A stretch of DNA of 45,155 bases. Source: a virus. Its lineage: Duplodnaviria > Caudoviricetes. A program made the position numbers and the translations under genes. The DNA lies in IMG/VR virus record IMGVR_UViG_3300027798_000073, positions 1-45,155 of that record, one strand, 5' to 3'. Below, in pieces: positions 7,498-29,410 of the stretch (positions within the stretch are counted from its first letter, which is position 1; every line of letters begins with the position of its first letter). The notes beneath the pieces were generated by a model. It was not told the DNA's origin. It made no database searches and saw only the letters and a list, made by a program, of their open reading frames with translations.

Positions 7498-7575
7498 TGG
7501 AGCAACGGGAGGGATTTGAACCCCCGATTTTCGGGATTTGCAATCCCGTGCATTGGGCCACTCTGCCACCGTTCC
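7498..7575 (-). tRNA. tRNA-Cys(GCA), copy with a G2:G71 acceptor mismatch
   Basis: Cloverleaf; anticodon arm CGGGA-TTGCAAA-TCCCG; U73; CCA. Confidence 0.85.
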
Positions 7576-7576
7576 A

Positions 7577-8494
7577 TTATTTGTAGTATCTTTCTAGTAG
7601 TTCTGAATGTACAGAACCACCAAACAGTCCTGGTGCTTTTAACAGTTCGTGTCCACTTGCATTCACTACAGACATTTGTCCATGTATGCCTGGGCCACTA
7701 AACTGTACCTTACAATCGCCGTTTACCAAACGATTGTTTCCTTTACCTTGTTGCATGTCGTGGATTCTTTTATCAAACCCTTCTTTACCCCAAGTTAAAA
7801 ACTCTTCATCATCTCTGAGGATGTAAACTGAATCTGTTTTATGGACAAACTCACAATGGAATTTGTCCAACGATGTACTAGGACTCGGCAACTTCCAGTC
7901 TACTAAGAAGCATGGAAGTTTTAGCATATGGGCAGAGTGCGCCATGCCGCCTTCGTAACTGATAATTGCCTTACAGTGTTTTGCCAGTAATTCAATTTTG
8001 TTTTCTAAATCGTGAGATGCATAGGACAGCATGTCTACAGTTATTACATCGTATCCTAAGCTCTTCACATACATGAAAACTTTAGCCCAATACTCCAGCG
8101 GCCTAGCTCTACACCATGGCCACTGATTGGGTTCTGCGGGATTAAGTTCGAAGCTTGCCGCAATGGCAATACATTTCTTTTCCTTATTGTCCCGTACTTT
8201 AATCATTTGTCTATTTACATAGATGTATTCTGGACGATAATAATCTGTGAAAAATTTTATGGGCCAACCTAGGTTGTTGAAGTTTCCGTTTTCTTCCGTG
8301 TAGTTGATGGTCAACAAATCATTTGGAATACGAAAAATCTTCTTGTATAAAGTCAAACTATCAAAAGTGTTATGGTCATTGTTCACATACAGGTTTACCT
8401 GCGGTGGAGCATTTGCTAATGCTGACAATAAACATAAGTTATCGCCTAACCCCACACAATTAGTATTGTTTAACTGTACGTCTATCTTTTCCAT
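7577..8494 (-). CDS. glycosyltransferase family 9-like protein
   Basis: GLGDNL at N-terminus, RPLEYW, IISYEGGMAHSA (GT9 DSG..H.A-like); AT-rich. Confidence 0.65.
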   Translation of the reverse strand: MEKIDVQLNNTNCVGLGDNLCLLSALANAPPQVNLYVNNDHNTFDSLTLYKKIFRIPNDLLTINYTEENGNFNNLGWPIKFFTDYYRPEYIYVNRQMIKVRDNKEKKCIAIAASFELNPAEPNQWPWCRARPLEYWAKVFMYVKSLGYDVITVDMLSYASHDLENKIELLAKHCKAIISYEGGMAHSAHMLKLPCFLVDWKLPSPSTSLDKFHCEFVHKTDSVYILRDDEEFLTWGKEGFDKRIHDMQQGKGNNRLVNGDCKVQFSGPGIHGQMSVVNASGHELLKAPGLFGGSVHSELLERYYK

Positions 8495-8516
8495 TTACAT
8501 AAGTATCCTCTATAGT

Positions 8517-8594
8517 TGGAGCAACGGGTGAGATTTGAACTCACGGTTTTCGGGATTTGCAATCCCGTGCATTGGGCCGCTCTGCCACCGTTGC
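8517..8594 (-). tRNA. tRNA-Cys(GCA)
   Basis: GCAACGG/CCGTTGC acceptor, GCA anticodon, CCA. Confidence 0.92.
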
Positions 8595-8598
8595 AAAT

Positions 8599-8808
8599 TT
8601 ATCTTTCGTCTCGTATTTTTTTCAAATACTCGGTTCCGACTTTACCTTGCTCTACTTCTAGTAGTGCAGTGACACTTGGCCCATGGGTAGTGACTATCTT
8701 GGGTGCGTGGCCACGTTTTAGCTCTCTGACTCTGGTGCTCATGATCAGCACTAGATTAAACAAGCCACCAACTTTTGCTCCTGCTTCTTGCGAGGTTCTA
8801 CCGGGCAT
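8599..8808 (-). CDS. rpoZ: RNA polymerase omega subunit-like protein
   Basis: KVGGLFNLVLIMSTRVREL...SVTALLEVEQGKV aligns by eye with RpoZ (GNRFDLVLVAARRARQ...TVIALREIEEG). Confidence 0.75.
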   Translation of the reverse strand: MPGRTSQEAGAKVGGLFNLVLIMSTRVRELKRGHAPKIVTTHGPSVTALLEVEQGKVGTEYLKKIRDER

Positions 8809-8826
8809 ATAATTCCTTTAAAATTT

Positions 8827-8855
8827 ATTGTAACATTATTTCTACACAAAGTCAA
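8827..8855 (-). promoter_or_regulatory. sigma70-type promoter for the rpoZ-like gene
   Basis: TTGACT-17 nt-TACAAT. Confidence 0.75.
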
Positions 8856-8866
8856 GTACTTATTCA

Positions 8867-8962
8867 TGGCAGAGAGTAAGGGATTCGAACCCTTGAGCCG
8901 GAGTTTTTGCCCCAGCTGTCTTCTTAGCAGGAAGGTGGTTTCAGCCGCTCACCCAACTCTCT
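8867..8962 (-). tRNA. tRNA-Ser(GCT)
   Basis: Long variable arm, loop CTGCTAA, G73, CCA. Confidence 0.9.
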
Positions 8963-8969
8963 ATAAATT

Positions 8970-9043
8970 TGGTGCCCCGTGACAGAATCGAACTGCCAAC
9001 TACTGATTACAAAACAGTTGTTATACCACTTAACTAACAGGGC
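8970..9043 (-). tRNA. tRNA-Thr(TGT)
   Basis: Loop TTTGTAA, CCA. Confidence 0.9.
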
Positions 9044-9047
9044 GTAT

Positions 9048-9137
9048 TGGCGGAAGTAGTAGGATTCGAACCCACGGACCCTTTCGAGCCTTCAGTTTTC
9101 AAGACTGCTGCCTTAAGCCATGCTCAGCCATACTTCC
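9048..9137 (-). tRNA. tRNA-Ser(TGA)
   Basis: Long variable arm, loop CTTGAAA, CCA. Confidence 0.92.
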
Positions 9138-9149
9138 ATAAATTTTTAC

Positions 9150-9224
9150 TGGCCGGTCCGGAGAGATTCGAACTCCCGACGCCTGGTTTCGAAGACCAGC
9201 ACTCTTCCACTGAGCTACGGACCG
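9150..9224 (-). tRNA. tRNA-Arg(TCG)
   Basis: CTGGT-CTTCGAA-ACCAG, CCA. Confidence 0.9.
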
Positions 9225-9229
9225 ATAAC

Positions 9230-9305
9230 TGGTAGTAGAGGTGGGACTCGAACCCACGATAAACAGCGTATGAAGCTGGTGCATTAGCCGCTATGCTACT
9301 CTACT
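9230..9305 (-). tRNA. tRNA-Met(CAT), elongator Met or Ile2
   Basis: Loop TTCATAC, A1:U72 paired, lacks initiator GGG/CCC. Confidence 0.85.
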
Positions 9306-9311
9306 ATAAAC

Positions 9312-9385
9312 TGGTGCTCAAGTACAGAATCGAACTGTCGATTGCTCCTTACCATGGAGCCGTTATGCCACTTAACTACAAGAGC
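9312..9385 (-). tRNA. tRNA-Thr(GGT), partly degenerate
   Basis: GCTCC-ATGGTAA-GGAGC; two U:U acceptor mismatches and one T-stem mismatch. Confidence 0.8.
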
Positions 9386-9386
9386 C

Positions 9387-9462
9387 TGGTGCGTGATGAG
9401 AGATTCGAACTCCCGGCATCCAACGAGTCAAATTGGCACTCTACCAACTGAGTTAATCACGC
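9387..9462 (-). tRNA. tRNA-Val(GAC)
   Basis: CCAAT-TTGACTC-GTTGG, CCA. Confidence 0.88.
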
Positions 9463-9463
9463 A

Positions 9464-9538
9464 TGGTCTCGCCAGGAGGAATCGAACCTCCGTTTTAACC
9501 TTAGGAGTGTTTTGTTCTATCCACTGAACTATAGCGAG
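9464..9538 (-). tRNA. tRNA-Arg(CCT), weak anticodon stem
   Basis: Loop CTCCTAA; only 3 Watson-Crick pairs in the anticodon stem. Confidence 0.8.
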
Positions 9539-9539
9539 C

Positions 9540-9617
9540 TGGTACCCTACCTCTGATTCGAACAGAGAGAACTTCTCCTTTTGAGAGAGATGACTTTACC
9601 AATTTGTCCAGTAGGGC
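9540..9617 (-). tRNA. tRNA-Leu(CAA) without long variable arm
   Basis: TCTCT-CTCAAAA-GGAGA; about 6 nt variable region; A73; CCA. Confidence 0.85.
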
Positions 9618-9623
9618 ATTGTA

Positions 9624-9699
9624 TGGTGCTACCTCCTGGAATCGAACCAGGCACACCCTGCTCTTCAGGCAGGTGCTCTACCAACTGAGCTAAGGTAGC
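9624..9699 (-). tRNA. tRNA-Phe(GAA)
   Basis: CCTGC-CTGAAGA-GCAGG, CCA. Confidence 0.92.
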
Positions 9700-9725
9700 A
9701 TTTGTTTGTTTGGAGTATATTTTCA

Positions 9726-9733
9726 TATAAATA
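9726..9733 (+). promoter_or_regulatory. T4-type late promoter motif
   Basis: Perfect TATAAATA 8 nt before the ATG of the only convincing plus-strand gene. Confidence 0.6.
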
Positions 9734-9741
9734 TTTTTGCT

Positions 9742-10335
9742 ATGAATATGTACTTTCAAAAGTTAGATTTTAAGGTAAGTCCTTGCGACATAGATTTTAC
9801 GACCTTTAAAGGGACTTACGACTATGAATACGGAAATTCAGATTTTACACTTAAATTTTATTTTATTCATGATGATCTGAAAGCTAGAGTAAAACAACTT
9901 TTTTCAAATTTTGTAGAAGTAGCACCCAATCAAATCAGATTTGTTGAAGCCACAGGATCAGAAGGTGCGATTATACCTCCGCACAAAGATCATCTGCTGT
10001 CTAGCATAAACTATTATTTCTGTGCAAGTGGGGCATCTACTCTGTGGTACAAAACAAAAGATGATATTGTGTTTGGCCGGGCAGCAGAATATGAAAGCGA
10101 TCAAATCGACCTACAAGATCAATTTACTGCTGTTAACGGAGACTGTTACCTGTTTAATTCTAACCAGGTGCATTCAGTTATACTAGGGAACGGCACACGA
10201 AGATTCCTACAGATACAGTATGGCACACCATACGATGAGCTGTTTCAAAAACTTGTGACATTTAAAATGGCAGAGGGTAAAGGAATCGAACCTTTAATAG
10301 CGGAATCAAAATCCGCGGTTATACCATTTAACTAA
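9742..10335 (+). CDS. 2OG-Fe(II) oxygenase/cupin-like protein (inverted insertion)
   Basis: IPPHKD...NYY...CYLFNSNQVHSV...RRFLQ (HxD...H...R); start at 9742 or 9748. Confidence 0.7.
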   Translation: MNMYFQKLDFKVSPCDIDFTTFKGTYDYEYGNSDFTLKFYFIHDDLKARVKQLFSNFVEVAPNQIRFVEATGSEGAIIPPHKDHLLSSINYYFCASGASTLWYKTKDDIVFGRAAEYESDQIDLQDQFTAVNGDCYLFNSNQVHSVILGNGTRRFLQIQYGTPYDELFQKLVTFKMAEGKGIEPLIAESKSAVIPFN

Positions 10336-10341
10336 CCCCCA
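10268..10341 (-). tRNA. tRNA-Gln(TTG)
   Basis: GCGGA-TTTTGAT-TCCGC, unpaired 1:72, G73, CCA. Confidence 0.9.
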
Positions 10342-10348
10342 ACAGAAC

Positions 10349-10425
10349 TGGCGCAACCGGAAGGATTTGAACCTCCTACCCCAACGTTCGTAGCGTTGTG
10401 CTCTATCCAAATGAGCTACGGCCGC
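10349..10425 (-). tRNA. tRNA-Arg(ACG)
   Basis: CAACG-CTACGAA-CGTTG, CCA. Confidence 0.92.
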
Positions 10426-10428
10426 AAA

Positions 10429-10926
10429 TTATAAAAGATGTATACCAGCTAATACTTTTTCAAATGATTCATTAAACAGCAGTCGCATCACCAGTCTGGA
10501 TTTACCTACGCCAACGTCAACATTGTGTGGAACATGCGTATTAAGCAAATAGAAGTCGCCAGTCTTTGCAACAAAGGATCCAACTTTTTCTAATTTTTCT
10601 ATAGGAAAGGCAAGCAAGATCGTGTTGTCTATGGATGCTTCATCTTTCCACTTATAAAAAAACGTTTCTTCGCTGTTGGTTTCTAAATAAAAATTTAGTC
10701 CTGTTGGTGTTGTGTCCAGGTGTGGCAGCACGTATCCTGTGACTGCCAACACATGTGCCTCTATGGGCATGATATCAAATTTAACTTTTTCCTTGAGAAG
10801 TTCCCGTACATATCCTATATCAGGAATACTGTATTCCGTGTACACAGATCCATCTGTTGCATACGCAGATCCTAATAGGCGTTTTAGGTCAACATCAAGT
10901 AAAGTTAAATTTATTTTTTGGAACAT
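10429..10926 (-). CDS. 2OG-Fe(II) oxygenase/cupin-like protein, paralog of 9742-10335
   Basis: VLPHLD...LNFYL...FVAKTGDFYLLNTHVPHNV...RLVMR. Confidence 0.7.
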   Translation of the reverse strand: MFQKINLTLLDVDLKRLLGSAYATDGSVYTEYSIPDIGYVRELLKEKVKFDIMPIEAHVLAVTGYVLPHLDTTPTGLNFYLETNSEETFFYKWKDEASIDNTILLAFPIEKLEKVGSFVAKTGDFYLLNTHVPHNVDVGVGKSRLVMRLLFNESFEKVLAGIHLL

Positions 10927-10977
10927 TTCATATCCTTGCTGAAACGTATTTAACTTGTAGATATTGCATAGATTGAA

Positions 10978-11199
10978 TTTGTAAGCCTACGCCGCGTTTA
11001 TCGTAGATTTATTCAGGACTTACCGGCCGCCTAGCCTGACCTCGAGCACGATGGATATCACTTGGGATCCGTCCAGCGTAGTCTCCTTTACAGACCTCCG
11101 CGGTTCCCCGCGGGTGGGAGTTGAACCCATTTGCCTTTTACTGCTTTGGTCCTTCGAAGAAACCTAGACAGCGTGACTTCACTTGCTGACACTTACAAA
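10978..11199 (-). ncRNA. candidate ~220 nt structured RNA
   Basis: Ends pair (TTTGTAAGT/GCTTACAAA); contains T-loop hairpin ATGGG-TTCAACT-CCCAC, CCGCGG-GGAA-CCGCGG and a UUCG-capped stem; no credible ORF. Confidence 0.65.
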
Positions 11200-11202
11200 A
11201 CT

Positions 11203-11280
11203 TGGAGCGGGTAGGGAGAGTCGAACTCCGCGATCTTCAGCTTGGAAGGCTGCTGGTGGCCCCATCACCTGTCTACCCGC
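11203..11280 (-). tRNA. tRNA-Gly(TCC), non-canonical (8/4-like, atypical D-arm)
   Basis: GCGGGTAG/CTACCCGC, GGAG-TTCGACT-CTCC, loop CTTCCAA, U73. Confidence 0.8.
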
Positions 11281-11285
11281 ATATA

Positions 11286-11320
11286 TGGTCGGAGTACAAG
11301 GATTCGAACCTTATACTCTA
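11286..11320 (-). pseudogene. tRNA remnant/minihelix (acceptor + T arm + ACCA only)
   Basis: GAGTATAAGG-TTCGAAT-CCTTGTACTC-CGACCA. Confidence 0.75.
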
Positions 11321-11323
11321 AAT

Positions 11324-11397
11324 TGGTCTCGGTAGCAGGAATCGAACCTACGCTCAAACGTCCCAAACGTCTAGTGATACCATTTCACCATACCGAG
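11324..11397 (-). tRNA. tRNA-Pro(TGG)
   Basis: AGACG-TTTGGGA-CGTTT, C1:G72, CCA. Confidence 0.9.
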
Positions 11398-11406
11398 AAA
11401 ACTAAT

Positions 11407-11480
11407 TGGTAGCTCGTGACAGAATCGAACTGCCGTCTGATCCGTGTAAAGGACCGGCCCTACCATTAGACGAACGAGCT
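11407..11480 (-). tRNA. tRNA-Val(TAC)
   Basis: GGTCC-TTTACAC-GGATC, CCA. Confidence 0.9.
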
Positions 11481-11485
11481 ATATT

Positions 11486-11559
11486 TGGTGGAGGATGGGA
11501 GGATCGAACTCCCATAAACAGCTTGCAAAGCTGCCGTAATCCCATTATACTAATCCCCC
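11486..11559 (-). tRNA. tRNA-Ala(TGC)
   Basis: G3:U70, loop TTTGCAA, CCA. Confidence 0.92.
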
Positions 11560-11568
11560 GGAAACTTT

Positions 11569-11597
11569 ATTGTATGCTAACAGACGTTCACTGTCAA
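11569..11597 (-). promoter_or_regulatory. internal sigma70-type promoter in the tRNA array
   Basis: TTGACA-17 nt-TACAAT just upstream of tRNA-Ala. Confidence 0.75.
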
Positions 11598-11725
11598 CAC
11601 TTTCGGATGATTTGAATTGCTTGTACAACAACATCAAAATTCATGTGCAAGGATTGTGCAATCTGATGCGCATCCAGATTTCTGTCCAACAGCTCTCTTA
11701 CTTGATTGATGATAGTACGTGTCAT
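11594..11725 (-). CDS. 43 aa HTH-like protein
   Basis: Manual translation MTRTIINQVRELLDRNLDAHQIAQSLHMNFDVVVQAIQIIRKC; AAGGAG RBS. Confidence 0.65.
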   Translation of the reverse strand: MTRTIINQVRELLDRNLDAHQIAQSLHMNFDVVVQAIQIIRKC

Positions 11726-11792
11726 TGATGTAACTCCTTGTACTATATACAACGCCTGTGAGTGCCATTGCGTTGACAGCCATGGTCTAAAT

Positions 11793-11866
11793 TGGCGTAC
11801 CCCCAGAGACTCGAACTCCGACGAACGGTTTTGGAGACCGCTATGCTGCCATTACATCAGGGATAC
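11793..11866 (-). tRNA. tRNA-Trp(CCA)
   Basis: GCGGT-CTCCAAA-ACCGT, G73, CCA. Confidence 0.92.
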
Positions 11867-11872
11867 ATTGAT

Positions 11873-11948
11873 TGGCTCCACAGGGTGGGCTCGAACCACC
11901 GACCAAATGATTAACAGTCATCTACTCTACCGACTGAGCTACTGCGGA
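11873..11948 (-). tRNA. tRNA-Asn(GTT)
   Basis: GATGA-CTGTTAA-TCATT, CCA. Confidence 0.93.
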
Positions 11949-11957
11949 ATGAAAAAT

Positions 11958-12032
11958 TGGTTCCGAGGGCAAGATTTGAACTTGCGGCCAATGGCTTATC
12001 AAGCCACTGCTCTACCCCTGAGCTACCCCGGA
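11958..12032 (-). tRNA. tRNA-Ile(GAT)
   Basis: GTGGC-TTGATAA-GCCAT, CCA. Confidence 0.92.
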
Positions 12033-12038
12033 ATAATA

Positions 12039-12121
12039 CCATATAGAAACACACTTCGGATACTGTACTAAACAGAAACTATCCACCACAGGCCATCCTG
12101 CTGAAATGTGTTTTTATATGG
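12039..12121 (-). ncRNA. structured spacer RNA closed by a ~20 bp stem
   Basis: CCATATAAAAACACATTTCAG ... CCGAAGTGTGTTTCTATATGG, enclosing two small hairpins. Confidence 0.6.
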
Positions 12122-12193
12122 TAGGGGCACAGAGAATCGAACTCTGATTAATAGGTTAAAAGCCTACTACTTTAGCCGTTAAGTTATACCCCC
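12119..12193 (-). tRNA. tRNA-Lys(TTT)
   Basis: GTAGG-CTTTTAA-CCTAT, CCA. Confidence 0.92.
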
Positions 12194-12222
12194 GACATCT
12201 TATCACTCTTGTCACTATTCAT
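12184..12222 (-). CDS. 12 aa micro-ORF (MNSDKSDKMSGV) ending inside tRNA-Lys
   Basis: AAAAGGAG RBS 7 nt before ATG. Confidence 0.4.
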   Translation of the reverse strand: MNSDKSDKMSGV

Positions 12223-12246
12223 GACAGATCTCCTTTTAAAATTAAA

Positions 12247-12460
12247 AATGCTCTGCGAACCCCGGTGGTAATTATACCGCATCAGAAATTTGGTCAGGTT
12301 GCCCCAATTAGTCTTTCATCACACACGGCCTCCACCCACTTCCCGACGGGTTCCGTTCTCGCATTGCCAGCGGCCTTTCGGTAAAAAGACTACCACCCTT
12401 GAGAGTCACCTCACTTCTTATCCTGCGGGTCACAGTATCCGCTAACCAAGCGGAACGTTA
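12247..12460 (-). ncRNA. candidate ~210 nt structured RNA
   Basis: TCCGCT/AGCGGA hairpin; long-range pairs TAGTCTTT/AAAGACTA and GGTGGTAGT/ATTACCACC; GAAA and GCAA loops. Confidence 0.6.
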
Positions 12461-12464
12461 GGGA

Positions 12465-12526
12465 GAGAGCCAGGTTGCAGGACCTAGTGCCTCTTGCGAG
12501 GGAAGTATCCAGGCGATATGGCTCTC
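12465..12526 (-). ncRNA. candidate 62 nt structured RNA in the tRNA-Asp trailer
   Basis: GAGAGCCA/TGGCTCTC, GCCTGG/CTAGGT, CCTC-GCAA-GAGG. Confidence 0.55.
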
Positions 12527-12531
12527 AAACT

Positions 12532-12607
12532 TGGCGCCTCGTAGGGGTTTCGATCCCCTTACCTCGACAGTGACAGTGTCGCGCTCTCCCAATTGAGCTA
12601 ACGAAGC
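12532..12607 (-). tRNA. tRNA-Asp(GTC)
   Basis: CGACA-CTGTCAC-TGTCG, G73; T-loop ATCGAAA. Confidence 0.9.
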
Positions 12608-12612
12608 AAATA

Positions 12613-12687
12613 TGGTACACGGTACGGGAATCGAACCCGTCTTACAAACGTGAAAGGCTTGTGTCCTAACCGATAGACGAACCGTGC
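12613..12687 (-). tRNA. tRNA-Glu(TTC)
   Basis: CAAGC-CTTTCAC-GTTTG, CCA. Confidence 0.92.
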
Positions 12688-12699
12688 ATGAAATCTTGT

Positions 12700-12774
12700 T
12701 GGGTTGAAGTACCAGGATCGAACTGGTGATAGCGGAATCACAACCCGCGGTTTTGCCACTAAACTAACCTCAAC
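12700..12774 (-). tRNA. tRNA-His(GTG)
   Basis: G-1:C73, loop TTGTGAT, CCA. Confidence 0.92.
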
Positions 12775-12780
12775 ATTGAA

Positions 12781-12867
12781 TGGTGGAGACGGTAGGAATC
12801 GAACCTACGGTGTTTCTGATGTCACTGATTTACAGTCAGCTGCCTTCGCCGCTCGGCACACATCTCC
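12781..12867 (-). tRNA. tRNA-Tyr(GTA)
   Basis: GCTGA-CTGTAAA-TCAGT, long variable arm, CCA. Confidence 0.92.
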
Positions 12868-13081
12868 ATATTAAAACATACTACAGGAACTCCACAGCAA
12901 TCACAGGACCGTCTCCTGCTAGGTCTGCTTCGTCATTACAGTTCAGCATTGTTCCACCGTGTCATACTTGGGTTTCCCCTCAACTTTCATGCACATGATA
13001 GCGAGCCAGCCCGTCAGCTGGTGTAGTACTCTCTATCATGCACCTAGCGGTGCTGTCAACCTCTAATACATTTTAATATGG
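12866..13081 (-). ncRNA. candidate ~215 nt structured RNA between tRNA-Leu and tRNA-Tyr
   Basis: 18 bp closing stem CCATATTAAAATGTATTA/TAGTATGTTTTAATATGG; nested ACAGCA/TGCTGT, GCTAGGT/ACCTAGC, CATGATAG/CTATCATG, CCAGCT/GGCTGG, GGG-GAAA-CCC, CAGGA/TCCTG. Confidence 0.7.
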
Positions 13082-13162
13082 TGCTCCGGGTCAGACTCGA
13101 ACTGACACACACAAGGTACTGGCTTCTAAGACCAGCGCGGCTACCAATTACGCCACCGGAGC
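13079..13162 (-). tRNA. tRNA-Leu(TAG)
   Basis: CTGGT-CTTAGAA-GCCAG, long variable arm, CCA. Confidence 0.92.
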
Positions 13163-13250: not shown

Positions 13251-13278
13251 AGTATAACATCATTTGGATAAATGTCAA
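13251..13278 (-). promoter_or_regulatory. sigma70-type promoter upstream of the first tRNA
   Basis: TTGACA-16 nt-TATACT with extended -10 TG. Confidence 0.65.
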
Positions 13279-13378: not shown

Positions 13379-13453
13379 ATAGTAAAGTGCTCTACATGAG
13401 CATGAGCCCACTGGTCACCTTGCTTGTGACAAGGCTAGAGAACACTTTACTAT
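13379..13453 (-). ncRNA. structured RNA element closed by a ~15 bp stem
   Basis: ATAGTAAAGTGTTCT...AGAGCACTTTACTAT enclosing AGCC/GGCT and GTCAC/GTGAC stems. Confidence 0.55.
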
Positions 13454-13570
13454 AACTGGATTTTACACATCAGCGTTGTCGCCACTGACTTACCATCCCC
13501 AGTTCCGCCCACATTAAGCCCATGTTTTGAGTGCAGGCAGGGTCGCGTTCCCTCACACTTTCTAACTTTT

Positions 13571-13607
13571 AAAAACAAAAAACCCCAGGGTTTTTAATCC
13601 TAGGGTC
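13571..13607 (-). terminator. intrinsic terminator of the attenuator
   Basis: GACCCTAGG-ATTAAAAAC-CCTGGGGTT followed by TTTTGTTTTT. Confidence 0.85.
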
Positions 13608-13659
13608 CTTGGAGTTTGCGTTTAGTTAGTTGTTAACTATACATGGTCTCCTGGACCCT
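13602..13659 (-). promoter_or_regulatory. antiterminator pairing
   Basis: AGGGTCC-A-GGAG in the leader ORF (13659-13648) is complementary to CTCC-AA-GGACCCT (13614-13602), which includes most of the 5' arm of the terminator. Confidence 0.75.
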
Positions 13660-13770
13660 TGATTCCTGTGGTGTGCGATCATTACTAATCTCAGTCGCAG
13701 ACCACAAGGCCACTGGCATATTATAGCCTAGTGAGCATGTGTGTTTGCTAAAGAGAGAGAATGTTTGCAT
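13633..13770 (-). CDS. 45 aa attenuator leader peptide containing all 20 amino acids
   Basis: MQTFSLFSKHTCSLGYNMPVALWSATEISNDRTPQESRVQETMYS*; lies between the promoter and the terminator; A-rich 5' UTR without a clear SD. Confidence 0.7.
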   Translation of the reverse strand: MQTFSLFSKHTCSLGYNMPVALWSATEISNDRTPQESRVQETMYS

Positions 13771-13817
13771 TTTAATAACTTTTCTTTTTTATAGGCTGCT
13801 TTTGCAACCTATGTCGT

Positions 13818-13846
13818 ATTGTATATTTATTTAGCCTTGCTGTCAA
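13818..13846 (-). promoter_or_regulatory. sigma70-type promoter of the leader
   Basis: TTGACA-17 nt-TACAAT with TAAATA in the spacer; 5' hairpin ATAGGTTGC-AAAA-GCAGCCTAT at 13791-13812. Confidence 0.8.
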
Positions 13847-16921: not shown

Positions 16922-17158
16922 TTAGCCTCCATAGTACTCAATTATTGAGTCCAGTTGCCTTATTAGAATCGTATTCTTGGCAACATCTTCTGGATGTAGC
17001 CAATACCCATCTGGATTATCGTCAGTCTTGGGATTTTTCTTCCACTGCTTGAGTTCCGTTTTCAAGTAGCCGCGATGATTAATAAGACTGGCAAGTGTGA
17101 TCTGATCCGCGGCTTCCCAGGGAATAGTGAATCCTTGTGCTTGGTCTTTTTTGCTCAT
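16922..17158 (-). CDS. hypothetical protein
   Basis: Start MSKKDQ overlapping the end of the cytochrome gene. Confidence 0.7.
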   Translation of the reverse strand: MSKKDQAQGFTIPWEAADQITLASLINHRGYLKTELKQWKKNPKTDDNPDGYWLHPEDVAKNTILIRQLDSIIEYYGG

Positions 17159-17463
17159 TTTAATCCCAGTATCCATTTAACCAGCACACGAGACTCTGCT
17201 TCGTTTGCTATACCGCCTGGCATGGGCATAGTACCCCATACACCACTGCCGCCGCCTACAACTTTCTTAACCAGTTTGTCTTCTGCGGCTTTGTCACCGG
17301 CATACTTCTTGGCAATATCTTTGTATGAAGGGCCAAGAATCTTGGCGTCTACGCCATGACAGCTCAAACAACCCTTGCTCGCGGCAAGAGTCTGCGGGTC
17401 AGCGCCCTGTGCGCTGCCACTGCTTAATACCAACGCAAATAATAATGCTGATAAATTGTTCAT
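17155..17463 (-). CDS. class I cytochrome c (c551/c552-like) with signal peptide
   Basis: Signal peptide, CLSCH heme motif, GPSYKDIA, GGSGVWGTMPMP (axial Met). Confidence 0.92.
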   Translation of the reverse strand: MNNLSALLFALVLSSGSAQGADPQTLAASKGCLSCHGVDAKILGPSYKDIAKKYAGDKAAEDKLVKKVVGGGSGVWGTMPMPGGIANEAESRVLVKWILGLK

Positions 17464-17465
17464 GA

Positions 17466-18017
17466 TTAATCCTTCCATTTACTATGAACCCAACCCAACA
17501 CATAGAGATCGTTTTCAATCTCTTCCGTTACAGTACCTTCTGGTACGAACCCTTTTGCTTCAAGATTTGCACTGCCGTCGTCCTCGTCGTCATCACTCAT
17601 GTGATTTCCTATACCAGAGCAGTACCAGTCAATATAGTCGCCCTTGCCCTGCAGATCTGCGACAATTCCGCCTGCAGAGCGCCAGCTACATGACCAGTAT
17701 TCGTCCTTGAGGATAGTAATTATTTCACGCTTCTGCCAACGCATGTTGCACAGTGCGGCATAAAGATTCTGTGCATAGCCATCACTGCGACACTTTTCAA
17801 TTACCCAGCGAGTGGTACGCAGATCCCACTCTAGATTGTTTTCACGCCAGGCTGGATCTACTTCTAATTCATCTGCACGAGCTTTCCAGTCATCGTAGAA
17901 CTTGATCATACGTTGTACTTCTGGATCGTCTAGGCTCTTGCCTGCTTCAAGAGTTCGTTGGATGTAGCCTTCTTTTTGGAAGGTGCCGCGGTCTGGGCTG
18001 GATGCTAATTCAATCAT
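17466..18017 (-). CDS. hypothetical phage protein
   Basis: YAQNLYAALCN, WSCSWRSAGGIVA, DYIDWYCSG. Confidence 0.75.
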   Translation of the reverse strand: MIELASSPDRGTFQKEGYIQRTLEAGKSLDDPEVQRMIKFYDDWKARADELEVDPAWRENNLEWDLRTTRWVIEKCRSDGYAQNLYAALCNMRWQKREIITILKDEYWSCSWRSAGGIVADLQGKGDYIDWYCSGIGNHMSDDDEDDGSANLEAKGFVPEGTVTEEIENDLYVLGWVHSKWKD

Positions 18018-26313: not shown

Positions 26314-26483
26314 ACTATCTCCTCAACAATTCCTAATCCTTCTGCTAGAATTAGCAATGACCCTGCAATCAGTAAGTTTCCATCAATTAGAAAAACTCCT
26401 GCCACAATTCGTAATCCGCTTTTTGCCAGGCTCACATAAAAGTGTCCTCGGCTGGTATCTTTGGGTTGAACGTCTATATTCAT
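26310..26483 (-). CDS. 57 aa membrane protein
   Basis: Manual translation MNIDVQPKDTSRGHFYVSLAKSGLRIVAGVFL...LAEGLGIVEEIV; ATGA overlaps at both ends. Confidence 0.7.
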   Translation of the reverse strand: MNIDVQPKDTSRGHFYVSLAKSGLRIVAGVFLIDGNLLIAGSLLILAEGLGIVEEIV

Positions 26484-27226
26484 CTTGGTGCAAAGTCCTG
26501 TTGTAGTTTGATGTTGTCAAAGAATTCCTTCTTAACACCAGCATCCTCTTTGAATGCTCCGTGTAACACAGTGGTCTGTGTCAACGAACTGTGAGCCATG
26601 ATGCCACGGTTCTCACAGCATCCATGTATGGCCTGTATGTACACGCCAACATCTTTGGATCCTGTTGCTGCCATTATTTCTCGGGCGATGTCGTTGCAGA
26701 GTTCTTCCTGTAGAGTACCACGACGAGCGCACCACTGAGCAATACGAGTGTACTTGCTAAGACCAATGAGCTTTTGAGCGGCAATAATCCCGATATAAGC
26801 AACGCCACTGACAGGTTGGTGGTGATGACTGCACATACTGCGAAGCTCACTGCGTACCACAAGCATTCCTTCGTAGCGGTCTGCTGAATCATTTGGAAAT
26901 GCTGTTGCGTCTGGTGCTGGTTCATATCTTCCTGCCATTATTTCGTTAAAGTACATCTTGGCCAGTCTACGTGCTGTACCTTGACTATTAGGATCGTTTT
27001 CACGATCGATCAGCAGTGCGTCTAGCACACCTTCGAATGCCACGGTGGCTTCATCAATCAGTTTATCTTTTGTAACATCTGATACGTATTCACTAATGTT
27101 GTCGCCTGCCCAGAAACGTCTGCCATCACGTTTCATCTTAGCACGGAGGTATCCACCTAGGTAACCTTCCGAATATCCGCCATCGCCTGCCATTGCGTCC
27201 AGGCCTGTTTCTTTTTTATCTGTCAA
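26480..27226 (-). CDS. folE: GTP cyclohydrolase I
   Basis: TARRLAKMY, SMCSHH, IGLSKYTR, LQEEL, HGCCENRG; TTG start with GGAG RBS. Confidence 0.95.
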   Translation of the reverse strand: MTDKKETGLDAMAGDGGYSEGYLGGYLRAKMKRDGRRFWAGDNISEYVSDVTKDKLIDEATVAFEGVLDALLIDRENDPNSQGTARRLAKMYFNEIMAGRYEPAPDATAFPNDSADRYEGMLVVRSELRSMCSHHHQPVSGVAYIGIIAAQKLIGLSKYTRIAQWCARRGTLQEELCNDIAREIMAATGSKDVGVYIQAIHGCCENRGIMAHSSLTQTTVLHGAFKEDAGVKKEFFDNIKLQQDFAPR

Positions 27227-28497: not shown

Positions 28498-29193
28498 TTA
28501 TTTCCTATCCCCAAAAAGTTGTAATAAATTCAAGAACAAGTTGATAAAGTCCATGTACAGTGTTAATGCGCCACGCACTTCTGCAACATTGCTGGCCTCT
28601 ACACTGAGTTCTTCACGAATCTTTTGTGTGTCGTAGGCAGTGAGTCCTAAAAAGATAATGATGGCTAATGCTGAGATTACCATTTGCATAACTGTTGAAC
28701 CAATGAAGATATTAACAATACTGGCAATAACAATAGCAATCAATCCTACGAACATAAACTTGCCCACGCTGTCCAGGCTACGTTTGGTAAAGTAACCATA
28801 GCCACTCATCACTCCAAACAATATGGCTGCACCCATGAATGCACTCACGATTGATCCCATGGTAAACACAGCAAATATCATGGAAAAGCTCAAGCCCATT
28901 AAGGCCGCAAATCCATGCAAACATAACTGTGCAGTACCTTTGCTGGGATTGTTACCCAGCACGTAGCTGATGCCAAAGATAGCCGCAAGTGGTGCAAAGA
29001 TCACAATCCACTTCAACACACCTGTAAAAAAGAATGCCAGTAACTCTGGGGTGGTGCCCACAAAGTAACTAACAATCATGGAAACTAAAACAGCCAGGCT
29101 CATGTGTCCGTAAACACGGCCCATTGCTGAATTGATTTCCTCGGCTGAACGGTATGCAATAACCCCGCCGTCTGTATAATTTGTACCAAACAT
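28498..29193 (-). CDS. BAX inhibitor-1/YccA family membrane protein
   Basis: About 7 TM segments; LTAYDTQKI, GALTLYMDFINLF; AGGAG RBS before MFGTNY. Confidence 0.9.
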   Translation of the reverse strand: MFGTNYTDGGVIAYRSAEEINSAMGRVYGHMSLAVLVSMIVSYFVGTTPELLAFFFTGVLKWIVIFAPLAAIFGISYVLGNNPSKGTAQLCLHGFAALMGLSFSMIFAVFTMGSIVSAFMGAAILFGVMSGYGYFTKRSLDSVGKFMFVGLIAIVIASIVNIFIGSTVMQMVISALAIIIFLGLTAYDTQKIREELSVEASNVAEVRGALTLYMDFINLFLNLLQLFGDRK

Positions 29194-29194
29194 T

Positions 29195-29410
29195 TTATTC
29201 TCCTTTAAGTACTTGTAGCATTCTATACTGTTCAAACAGTTTTGTCAAGTCGACCCATCCACCTAGCCCATCTGCTATCTGCAGAGTTTGTCCATATGCC
29301 CATGACGCTGCCGCACGATGATACAATATTTGTGTGGTGCGATGATCAACTATGGGTGCAGACTCTATTAACATTTGTGACCATAGTTCCTGATCAGAAC
29401 TTTGTTTCAT
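29195..29410 (-). CDS. hypothetical protein (start uncertain)
   Basis: Fills the operon gap; ends FEQYRMLQVLKGE. Confidence 0.5.
   Translation of the reverse strand: MKQSSDQELWSQMLIESAPIVDHRTTQILYHRAAASWAYGQTLQIADGLGGWVDLTKLFEQYRMLQVLKGE

Follow-up and report, generated by a model that had tools for sequence, protein, structure and literature searches.

Ribosome-operated attenuators such as trpL, hisL, leuL, thrL, pheL and the multivalent ilv leaders share a design in which the leader ORF overlaps one arm of the antiterminator, and a ribosome at the stop codon masks the antiterminator. In leaders of the trp, his and thr type, one to three amino acids occur in runs, and the genes behind the switch encode biosynthetic enzymes or synthetases. 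The purpose of phage tRNA genes has long been debated, with codon bias, host tRNA decay and anticodon nucleases all invoked. The accessible part of one report (PMC10274678) describes the whiB7/wblC uORF as a general translation-sensing attenuator: efficient translation of the diverse uORF leads to the intrinsic terminator and stalling to the antiterminator, uORF composition determines which starvation is sensed, and the M. smegmatis uORF contains 19 of the 20 residues, all but Cys. A sequence-only reading of the locus studied here knew of no description of such a general sensor, whereas the same accessible text gives one (PMC10274678). In E. coli toiL-topAI, a uORF likewise senses stalls at several positions; according to the accessible text (PMC12121999) that system differs in working through ribosome-binding-site occlusion and Rho, in sensing antibiotics and in gating a toxin-antitoxin pair. 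The ilvB1 attenuator, as far as the accessible text covers it (PMC13236596), is a further parallel. No account of attenuated phage tRNA genes was found in a literature search that covered mostly open-access main texts, and the main texts of PMC7824862 and PMC11242549 contain neither "leader" nor "attenuat".

The locus lies on a 45,155-nt virus record, below called the window, from a giant (jumbo) lake-water phage whose genes include a DNA polymerase B, a cytochrome c and an RNA polymerase omega-like gene. The following features are found at and behind the head of its tRNA region.

13818..13846, minus strand: sigma70-type promoter P1 (TTGACA-17-TACAAT, 11 of 12 consensus matches)
13791..13812, minus strand: 5' hairpin at the predicted transcript start
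13633..13770, minus strand: leader ORF of 45 codons, with 20 amino acids by codon 32 and 33 distinct codons
13665..13708, minus strand: hairpin across codons 21-36, formed between the side with the Trp codon and the Asp-Arg-Thr-Pro side
13648..13659, minus strand: antiterminator 5' arm, codons 38-41 (AGGGTCC at 13659-13653, plus GGAG)
13602..13614, minus strand: antiterminator 3' arm (CTCC plus GGACCCT), overlapping the terminator 5' arm
13571..13610, minus strand: intrinsic terminator hairpin and U tract (-15.2 kcal/mol), with covariation
13453..13558, minus strand: structured RNA motif of ~105 nt, the first feature past the terminator, conserved at 85 of 88 homologous loci
13251..13278, minus strand: internal promoter P2 (11 of 12 matches, extended -10), between the switch and the first tRNA
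7498..13162, minus strand: tRNA array (27 genes, 20 amino acids); promoters also lie at 11597 and 8855

The layout of the leader proposed by the sequence-only reading was recovered part by part: the promoter at 13846-13818 is a near-consensus match, the ORF encodes the 45-aa peptide it had given, the 20th new residue is Arg32, the codon 21-36 hairpin has a z of -2.3, AGGGTCC plus GGAG pairs with CTCC plus GGACCCT at -23.9 kcal/mol, and the terminator folds down to 13571. The entire leader folds at z -6.1 relative to shuffles. A terminator scan had missed the terminator because its loop is 9 nt and the limit of the scan is 8. Among the matches listed, a promoter stands upstream of 133 of 137 homologous leaders. 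The 5' hairpin is followed by an A-rich spacer without a Shine-Dalgarno (SD) sequence. The missing SD, which had been raised as a caveat, turned out to be a common trait of the family: 30 of 136 listed leaders are leaderless, and an SD-like word occurs in 31 of 100 leadered leaders compared with 70 of 89 next ORFs. Three leadered relatives (L076, L099, L158) carry a tiny ATG-stop frame at the predicted transcript start, at the position where leaderless relatives start their leader. The hairpin across codons 21-36 is possibly a pause hairpin; in 37 hand-picked homologues 90% of the cells of the named structure are paired, the same homologues show no covariation in it, and RNAalifold returned no consensus structure for it among homologues.

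Like trp/his-type leaders, the ORF extends over the antiterminator arm, one arm is shared and a terminator follows, and antiterminator and intrinsic terminator are mutually exclusive. Unlike trp/his/thr-type leaders, it has no residue run, its rare residues are single-copy, and it is followed by tRNA genes. It also differs in having no protector hairpin. The upstream hairpin ends before the antiterminator arm and does not hold it, so the predicted default without a ribosome is readthrough. With the whiB7/wblC uORF it would share a choice between terminator and antiterminator made by translation of a short ORF. The whiB7/wblC uORF, to the extent described in the accessible text (PMC10274678), is cellular (Actinobacteria), gates a transcription factor and is alanine-enriched, and that of M. 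tuberculosis lacks several residues, whereas the present family, compared with it by design only, is viral, has leaders of ~47 codons under one-of-each-residue selection and is located ahead of tRNA genes. What lies downstream is an RNA motif and tRNAs, and Ala makes up 5% of leader residues. Neither leader nor window matched a T-box or other curated leader model in Rfam, and the leader peptide has no Pfam or PHROG match. The element is conserved, resembles a leader-peptide attenuator, and lies outside the trp-type and whiB7 families.

The chance of meeting all 20 residues is 0.001 in 32 codons, the computation that the sequence-only reading had proposed, and 0.03 in 45 codons. The window alone is therefore suggestive only, and the decisive evidence comes from the family. 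Three pattern scans of viral contigs gave at least 139 unique leaders from uncultured jumbo phages, selected for their position and RNA motif without regard to composition; a contig-edge match without an ORF was left out, as was, after the first set, an unrelated match (L216). Among the matches listed, 112 of 139 unique leaders are complete, that is, contain all 20 residues, and the remaining ones contain 19 (n=18), 18 (n=8) or 17 (n=1), giving at least 19 in 130 of 139. All 20 residues are likewise present in 46 of 68 representatives with <70% identity. Counting against completeness, complete leaders predominate in just 8 of the 17 clusters formed by 50% single linkage.

In the first set, 79 of 103 leaders were complete, compared with 4.7 expected from proteome composition and 4.0 from pooled leader composition, while other reading frames of the same set gave 1-5 of 103. 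Other 40-55 aa ORFs in the loci were complete in 5 of 268 cases and protein 47-mers in 41 of 1302. Null tests were run on 138 leaders (one 67-aa ORF excluded), where the observed completeness of 81% contrasts with 15% after column shuffling and 12-20% (maximum 55%) in a tree-aware simulation with site profiles, a range that also holds from a complete root. Relatedness is thus no explanation for completeness, and the idea that divergent leaders upstream of tRNAs should stay complete withstood its test. Collectively these data show selection for amino-acid completeness in the leader family. Cys is single-copy in 112 of 138 leaders and absent in 13, and is spread over 26 alignment columns; the Trp and the Asp-Arg-Thr-Pro block keep constant positions, and most columns are variable. 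Differences between sister pairs fall 87/61/165 on the three codon positions, a third-position excess, and comprise 151 synonymous and 162 non-synonymous changes, a synonymous excess; the leader ORF, downstream of a promoter, is under coding selection. Leaders use 29.8 distinct codons each, compared with the 27.4-28.4 needed by their peptides. They prefer NAU codons (Tyr, His, Asp, Asn) relative to flanking genes (TAT 0.95 vs 0.59) as well as GAG, GCG and ATA, a preference that may tune sensitivity to wobble or modification.

We compared leader content with array content for 11 of the 27 incomplete leaders and for the cultured phage Phosso. Sixteen residues are missing from these 12 leaders, and for 9 of them the tRNA is absent from the array (3.65 expected), with arrays read over 8.5-19 kb and among related loci. 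When the tRNA of a missing residue is present, it lies late in the array in all but one case, and the mean rank for missing residues is 16.7 vs 10.5-11.5. Two arrays, of 32 and 42 tRNAs, miss exactly the residue that is missing from their own leader. The exception is L276, whose leader has no Cys though tRNA-Cys stands early in its array. Matching of codons to anticodons is mixed, positive for ATA and TTA and negative for AAG and GTY; the overall p of 0.04 is uncorrected and comes from related loci, and we draw no claim from it. The sequence-only reading had proposed a general sensor of translation capacity. Its attenuator design is supported; since leader content follows the tRNA content of the array, a sensor of the supplied tRNAs describes the element better than a general one.

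Both helices covary, as the sequence-only reading had expected of a true antiterminator/terminator pair. Across the 68 representatives, the antiterminator reaches 97% pairing and shows 19 two-sided changes, and the corresponding values for the terminator are 99% and 25; 0 of 500 shuffles come up to either. A single pair contributes most of the covariation, and part of the helix was already fixed by the search patterns. A helix-independent pattern recovered rare helix variants, including a three-way change in L329. Across the family the antiterminator arm is read in all three frames. We then modeled equilibrium folding with a ribosome placed on the leader. In the window, the antiterminator forms without a ribosome (P ~1.0) or with the A site at codons 2-33, and the terminator replaces it once the ribosome is at codon 35-36 or beyond. 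The model thus agrees with the proposal that a ribosome late in the ORF would mask the antiterminator and a stalled one would not. Among representatives, the antiterminator is favoured without a ribosome in 59 of 68, with a mid-leader stall in 57 and with a stall just before the arm in 52; the terminator still wins in 11 of 68 during a mid-leader stall, and once the ribosome is at the stop codon it is favoured in all 68, partly by construction. In the window, 18 nt separate the last new residue from the antiterminator arm. In most relatives this distance is 9 nt, the edge of the ribosome footprint: for 79 complete leaders it is at least 12 nt in 19 and at least 9 nt in 65, and the residue lies at or past the arm in 7. 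The last residue may therefore often be sensed poorly.

In the ~105-nt RNA motif behind the terminator two helices covary, one of them a 3-bp hairpin around AACG[AC]G[AG], and a GGGCG is invariant. The motif matched no Rfam family, and identities as a ribozyme, T-box or RNase P RNA were considered and found no Rfam support. In 60 of 88 loci the first gene behind the terminator, ahead of the motif, is a ~52-aa charged ORF (e.g. L246:9737-9892, minus strand), which is absent in the window and for which no named family was found. The 27 tRNA genes counted in the sequence-only reading are obtained with ARAGORN at a relaxed threshold, which adds a Gly tRNA near 11207-11280; the default gives 26. 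Promoters predicted at 13278 and 11597 are real matches, and another lies at 8855. The associated caveat stands as well: P2 sits between the switch and the first tRNA, so in this genome the switch would directly gate the ~105-nt RNA. Between the switch and P2 there is only a weak terminator-like site of 5 pairs. tRNAs lie within 2.5 kb downstream in 78 of 78 loci with enough flank; a consensus promoter intervenes in 28 of these, the window included, and none does in 50. Additional promoters also lie inside most of the arrays.

Contigs from lake metatranscriptomes span the leader at 13588-13729 (0 differences) and 13645-13790 (two differences), and two RNA-library contigs bridge P2. Such contigs may be DNA and show no strand, ends or level, and are therefore only a weak hint of transcription. 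Contig depth peaks on the terminator only because many relatives share it, and gaps in coverage carry no evidence. Two non-tRNA stretches of the array on the minus strand (~10950-11200 and 12250-12450) have very high lake-RNA contig depth, to ~30000 and 10000 respectively, summed over relatives; they matched nothing in Rfam and are likely abundant unnamed RNAs. The array also contains an RNA polymerase omega-like protein gene (window 8599-8808, minus strand) and is interrupted by an opposite-strand ORF of 209 aa (window 9706-10335, plus strand) with no Pfam or PHROG match.

We believe, with a probability of roughly 0.8, that the element is a ribosome-operated attenuator sensing the tRNAs that the array supplies. 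Its all-20-residue ORF and mutually exclusive helices open the tRNA region of the phage. According to the folding predictions, no ribosome or a stall at codons 2-33 would leave the antiterminator to form, whereas a ribosome at codon 35-36 or later would cover the arm and let the terminator form. A shortage of any array-supplied tRNA would then stall the ribosome and allow transcription to continue. Host sigma70 polymerase and a coupled ribosome presumably operate the switch in vivo, the trigger would be uncharged, cleaved or scarce tRNA, and readthrough would add to transcription from P2; in the window genome full control by the switch would extend to the ~105-nt RNA alone, with the tRNAs receiving a boost. 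We give an even chance to the further idea of a codon checksum, in which the leader holds one selected test codon per replaceable tRNA, co-evolves with the array and, when host tRNAs are attacked (anticodon nucleases, starvation, loss of modification), stalls the ribosome and so turns on replacement tRNAs. If true, attenuation would here be put to a new use, the control of tRNA genes, and the phage would possess an inducible counter-defence. A switch responding to tRNA supply speaks for replacement on demand as a purpose of phage tRNA genes and would reveal which tRNAs the phage monitors. Selection to contain every amino acid once, wherever it stands, is a constraint rarely met in coding sequences, and a leader cassette could become a general reporter of tRNA damage.

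The attenuator might instead sense the general supply or speed of ribosomes (failed initiation, hibernation, antibiotics, uncoupling), with completeness only broadening its response and no special tie to the phage tRNAs. The antiterminator default without a ribosome, in the window and in most representatives, and the weak or absent SD of the leader family would fit such a sensor, as would the antibiotic response described in the accessible texts on whiB7 and toiL (PMC10274678, PMC12121999). We consider it unlikely, as completeness is preserved residue by residue, its exceptions follow array content, and the cultured phage SCTP-2 splits residues among block-specific leaders. It is also quite improbable that the switch controls only the ~105-nt RNA motif here, together with the ~52-aa ORF in relatives, and that the tRNAs are made from independent promoters. 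The near-consensus P2 with its extended -10, the near-constant position of the motif behind the terminator and the frequency of internal promoters speak for this arrangement; against it are the loci without an intervening consensus promoter, which form the majority, the weakness of the sole terminator-like site between switch and P2, the contigs bridging P2 (weak, as they may be DNA), and leader content that tracks tRNAs.

A role for the peptide in trans or as an arrest peptide strikes us as very unlikely, as does an origin of the ORF as a by-product of RNA structure, with completeness incidental in each case. In favour, the fixed Trp and Asp-Arg-Thr-Pro block are base-paired with each other, and the peptide matches no Pfam or PHROG family, but most alignment columns are variable, the C-terminal part is read in three frames, and the profile and tree nulls fall far below the observed completeness.

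By polymerase, the closest cultured relatives are Phosso (50%) and Atu_ph07 (47%), the latter a member of jumbo group 2.2 in the accessible text of PMC7824862. Similar switches were found in 3 of 7 cultured relatives examined, and their leaders are annotated only as hypothetical proteins.

Phosso, PV764938, 419754-419918: leader of 54 codons with 19 residues
Atu_ph07, MF403008, 339246-339118: leader of 42 codons with 18 residues
Salicola phage SCTP-2, MF360958, 296520, 303694 and 308741, and also L530 near 6340: leader-terminator units (four leaders)

Like the window, all three have a short ORF, a complementary arm and a terminator ahead of tRNA genes; unlike it, Phosso has 19 residues, Atu_ph07 has 18, and SCTP-2 has four block-specific leaders, each rich in the residues of the tRNA block behind it. 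Phosso, whose host is Sinorhizobium meliloti, keeps the GGGTC/GACCC helix core, followed by further promoters and then the tRNA array, with its tRNA-Cys located outside the array. The Atu_ph07 terminator lies ~120 nt ahead of tRNA-Ala. Folding contrasts are weaker in the cultured phages, and for one SCTP-2 leader the terminator wins the equilibrium comparison every time. The tRNA regions of Paride, Sharanji, GAP32 and Vibrio 2.275.O contain no such switch. Searching cultured phages at the nucleotide level with the window region returned tRNA matches or noise and nothing else, and a protein search gave 4 matches, all near relatives. In 5 of 64 parts of the bacterial genomes, the terminator pattern matched 125 times in 121 loci, one of them with the arm and none with arm and leader together, so that no cellular source was seen in these parts.

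Five near-complete relatives measure 345-383 kb, and the terminator pattern is single-copy in 39 of 40 records. A betaproteobacterial permuted tmRNA in one relative (L286:284-761) hints at the host group. Elsewhere in the window, on the minus strand, are the cytochrome c gene (17155-17478) and genes for GTP cyclohydrolase I (26480-27226) and a Bax inhibitor-1 family protein (28498-29235), and the tRNA array of another relative contains a GOLLD RNA (L310:8574-9038).
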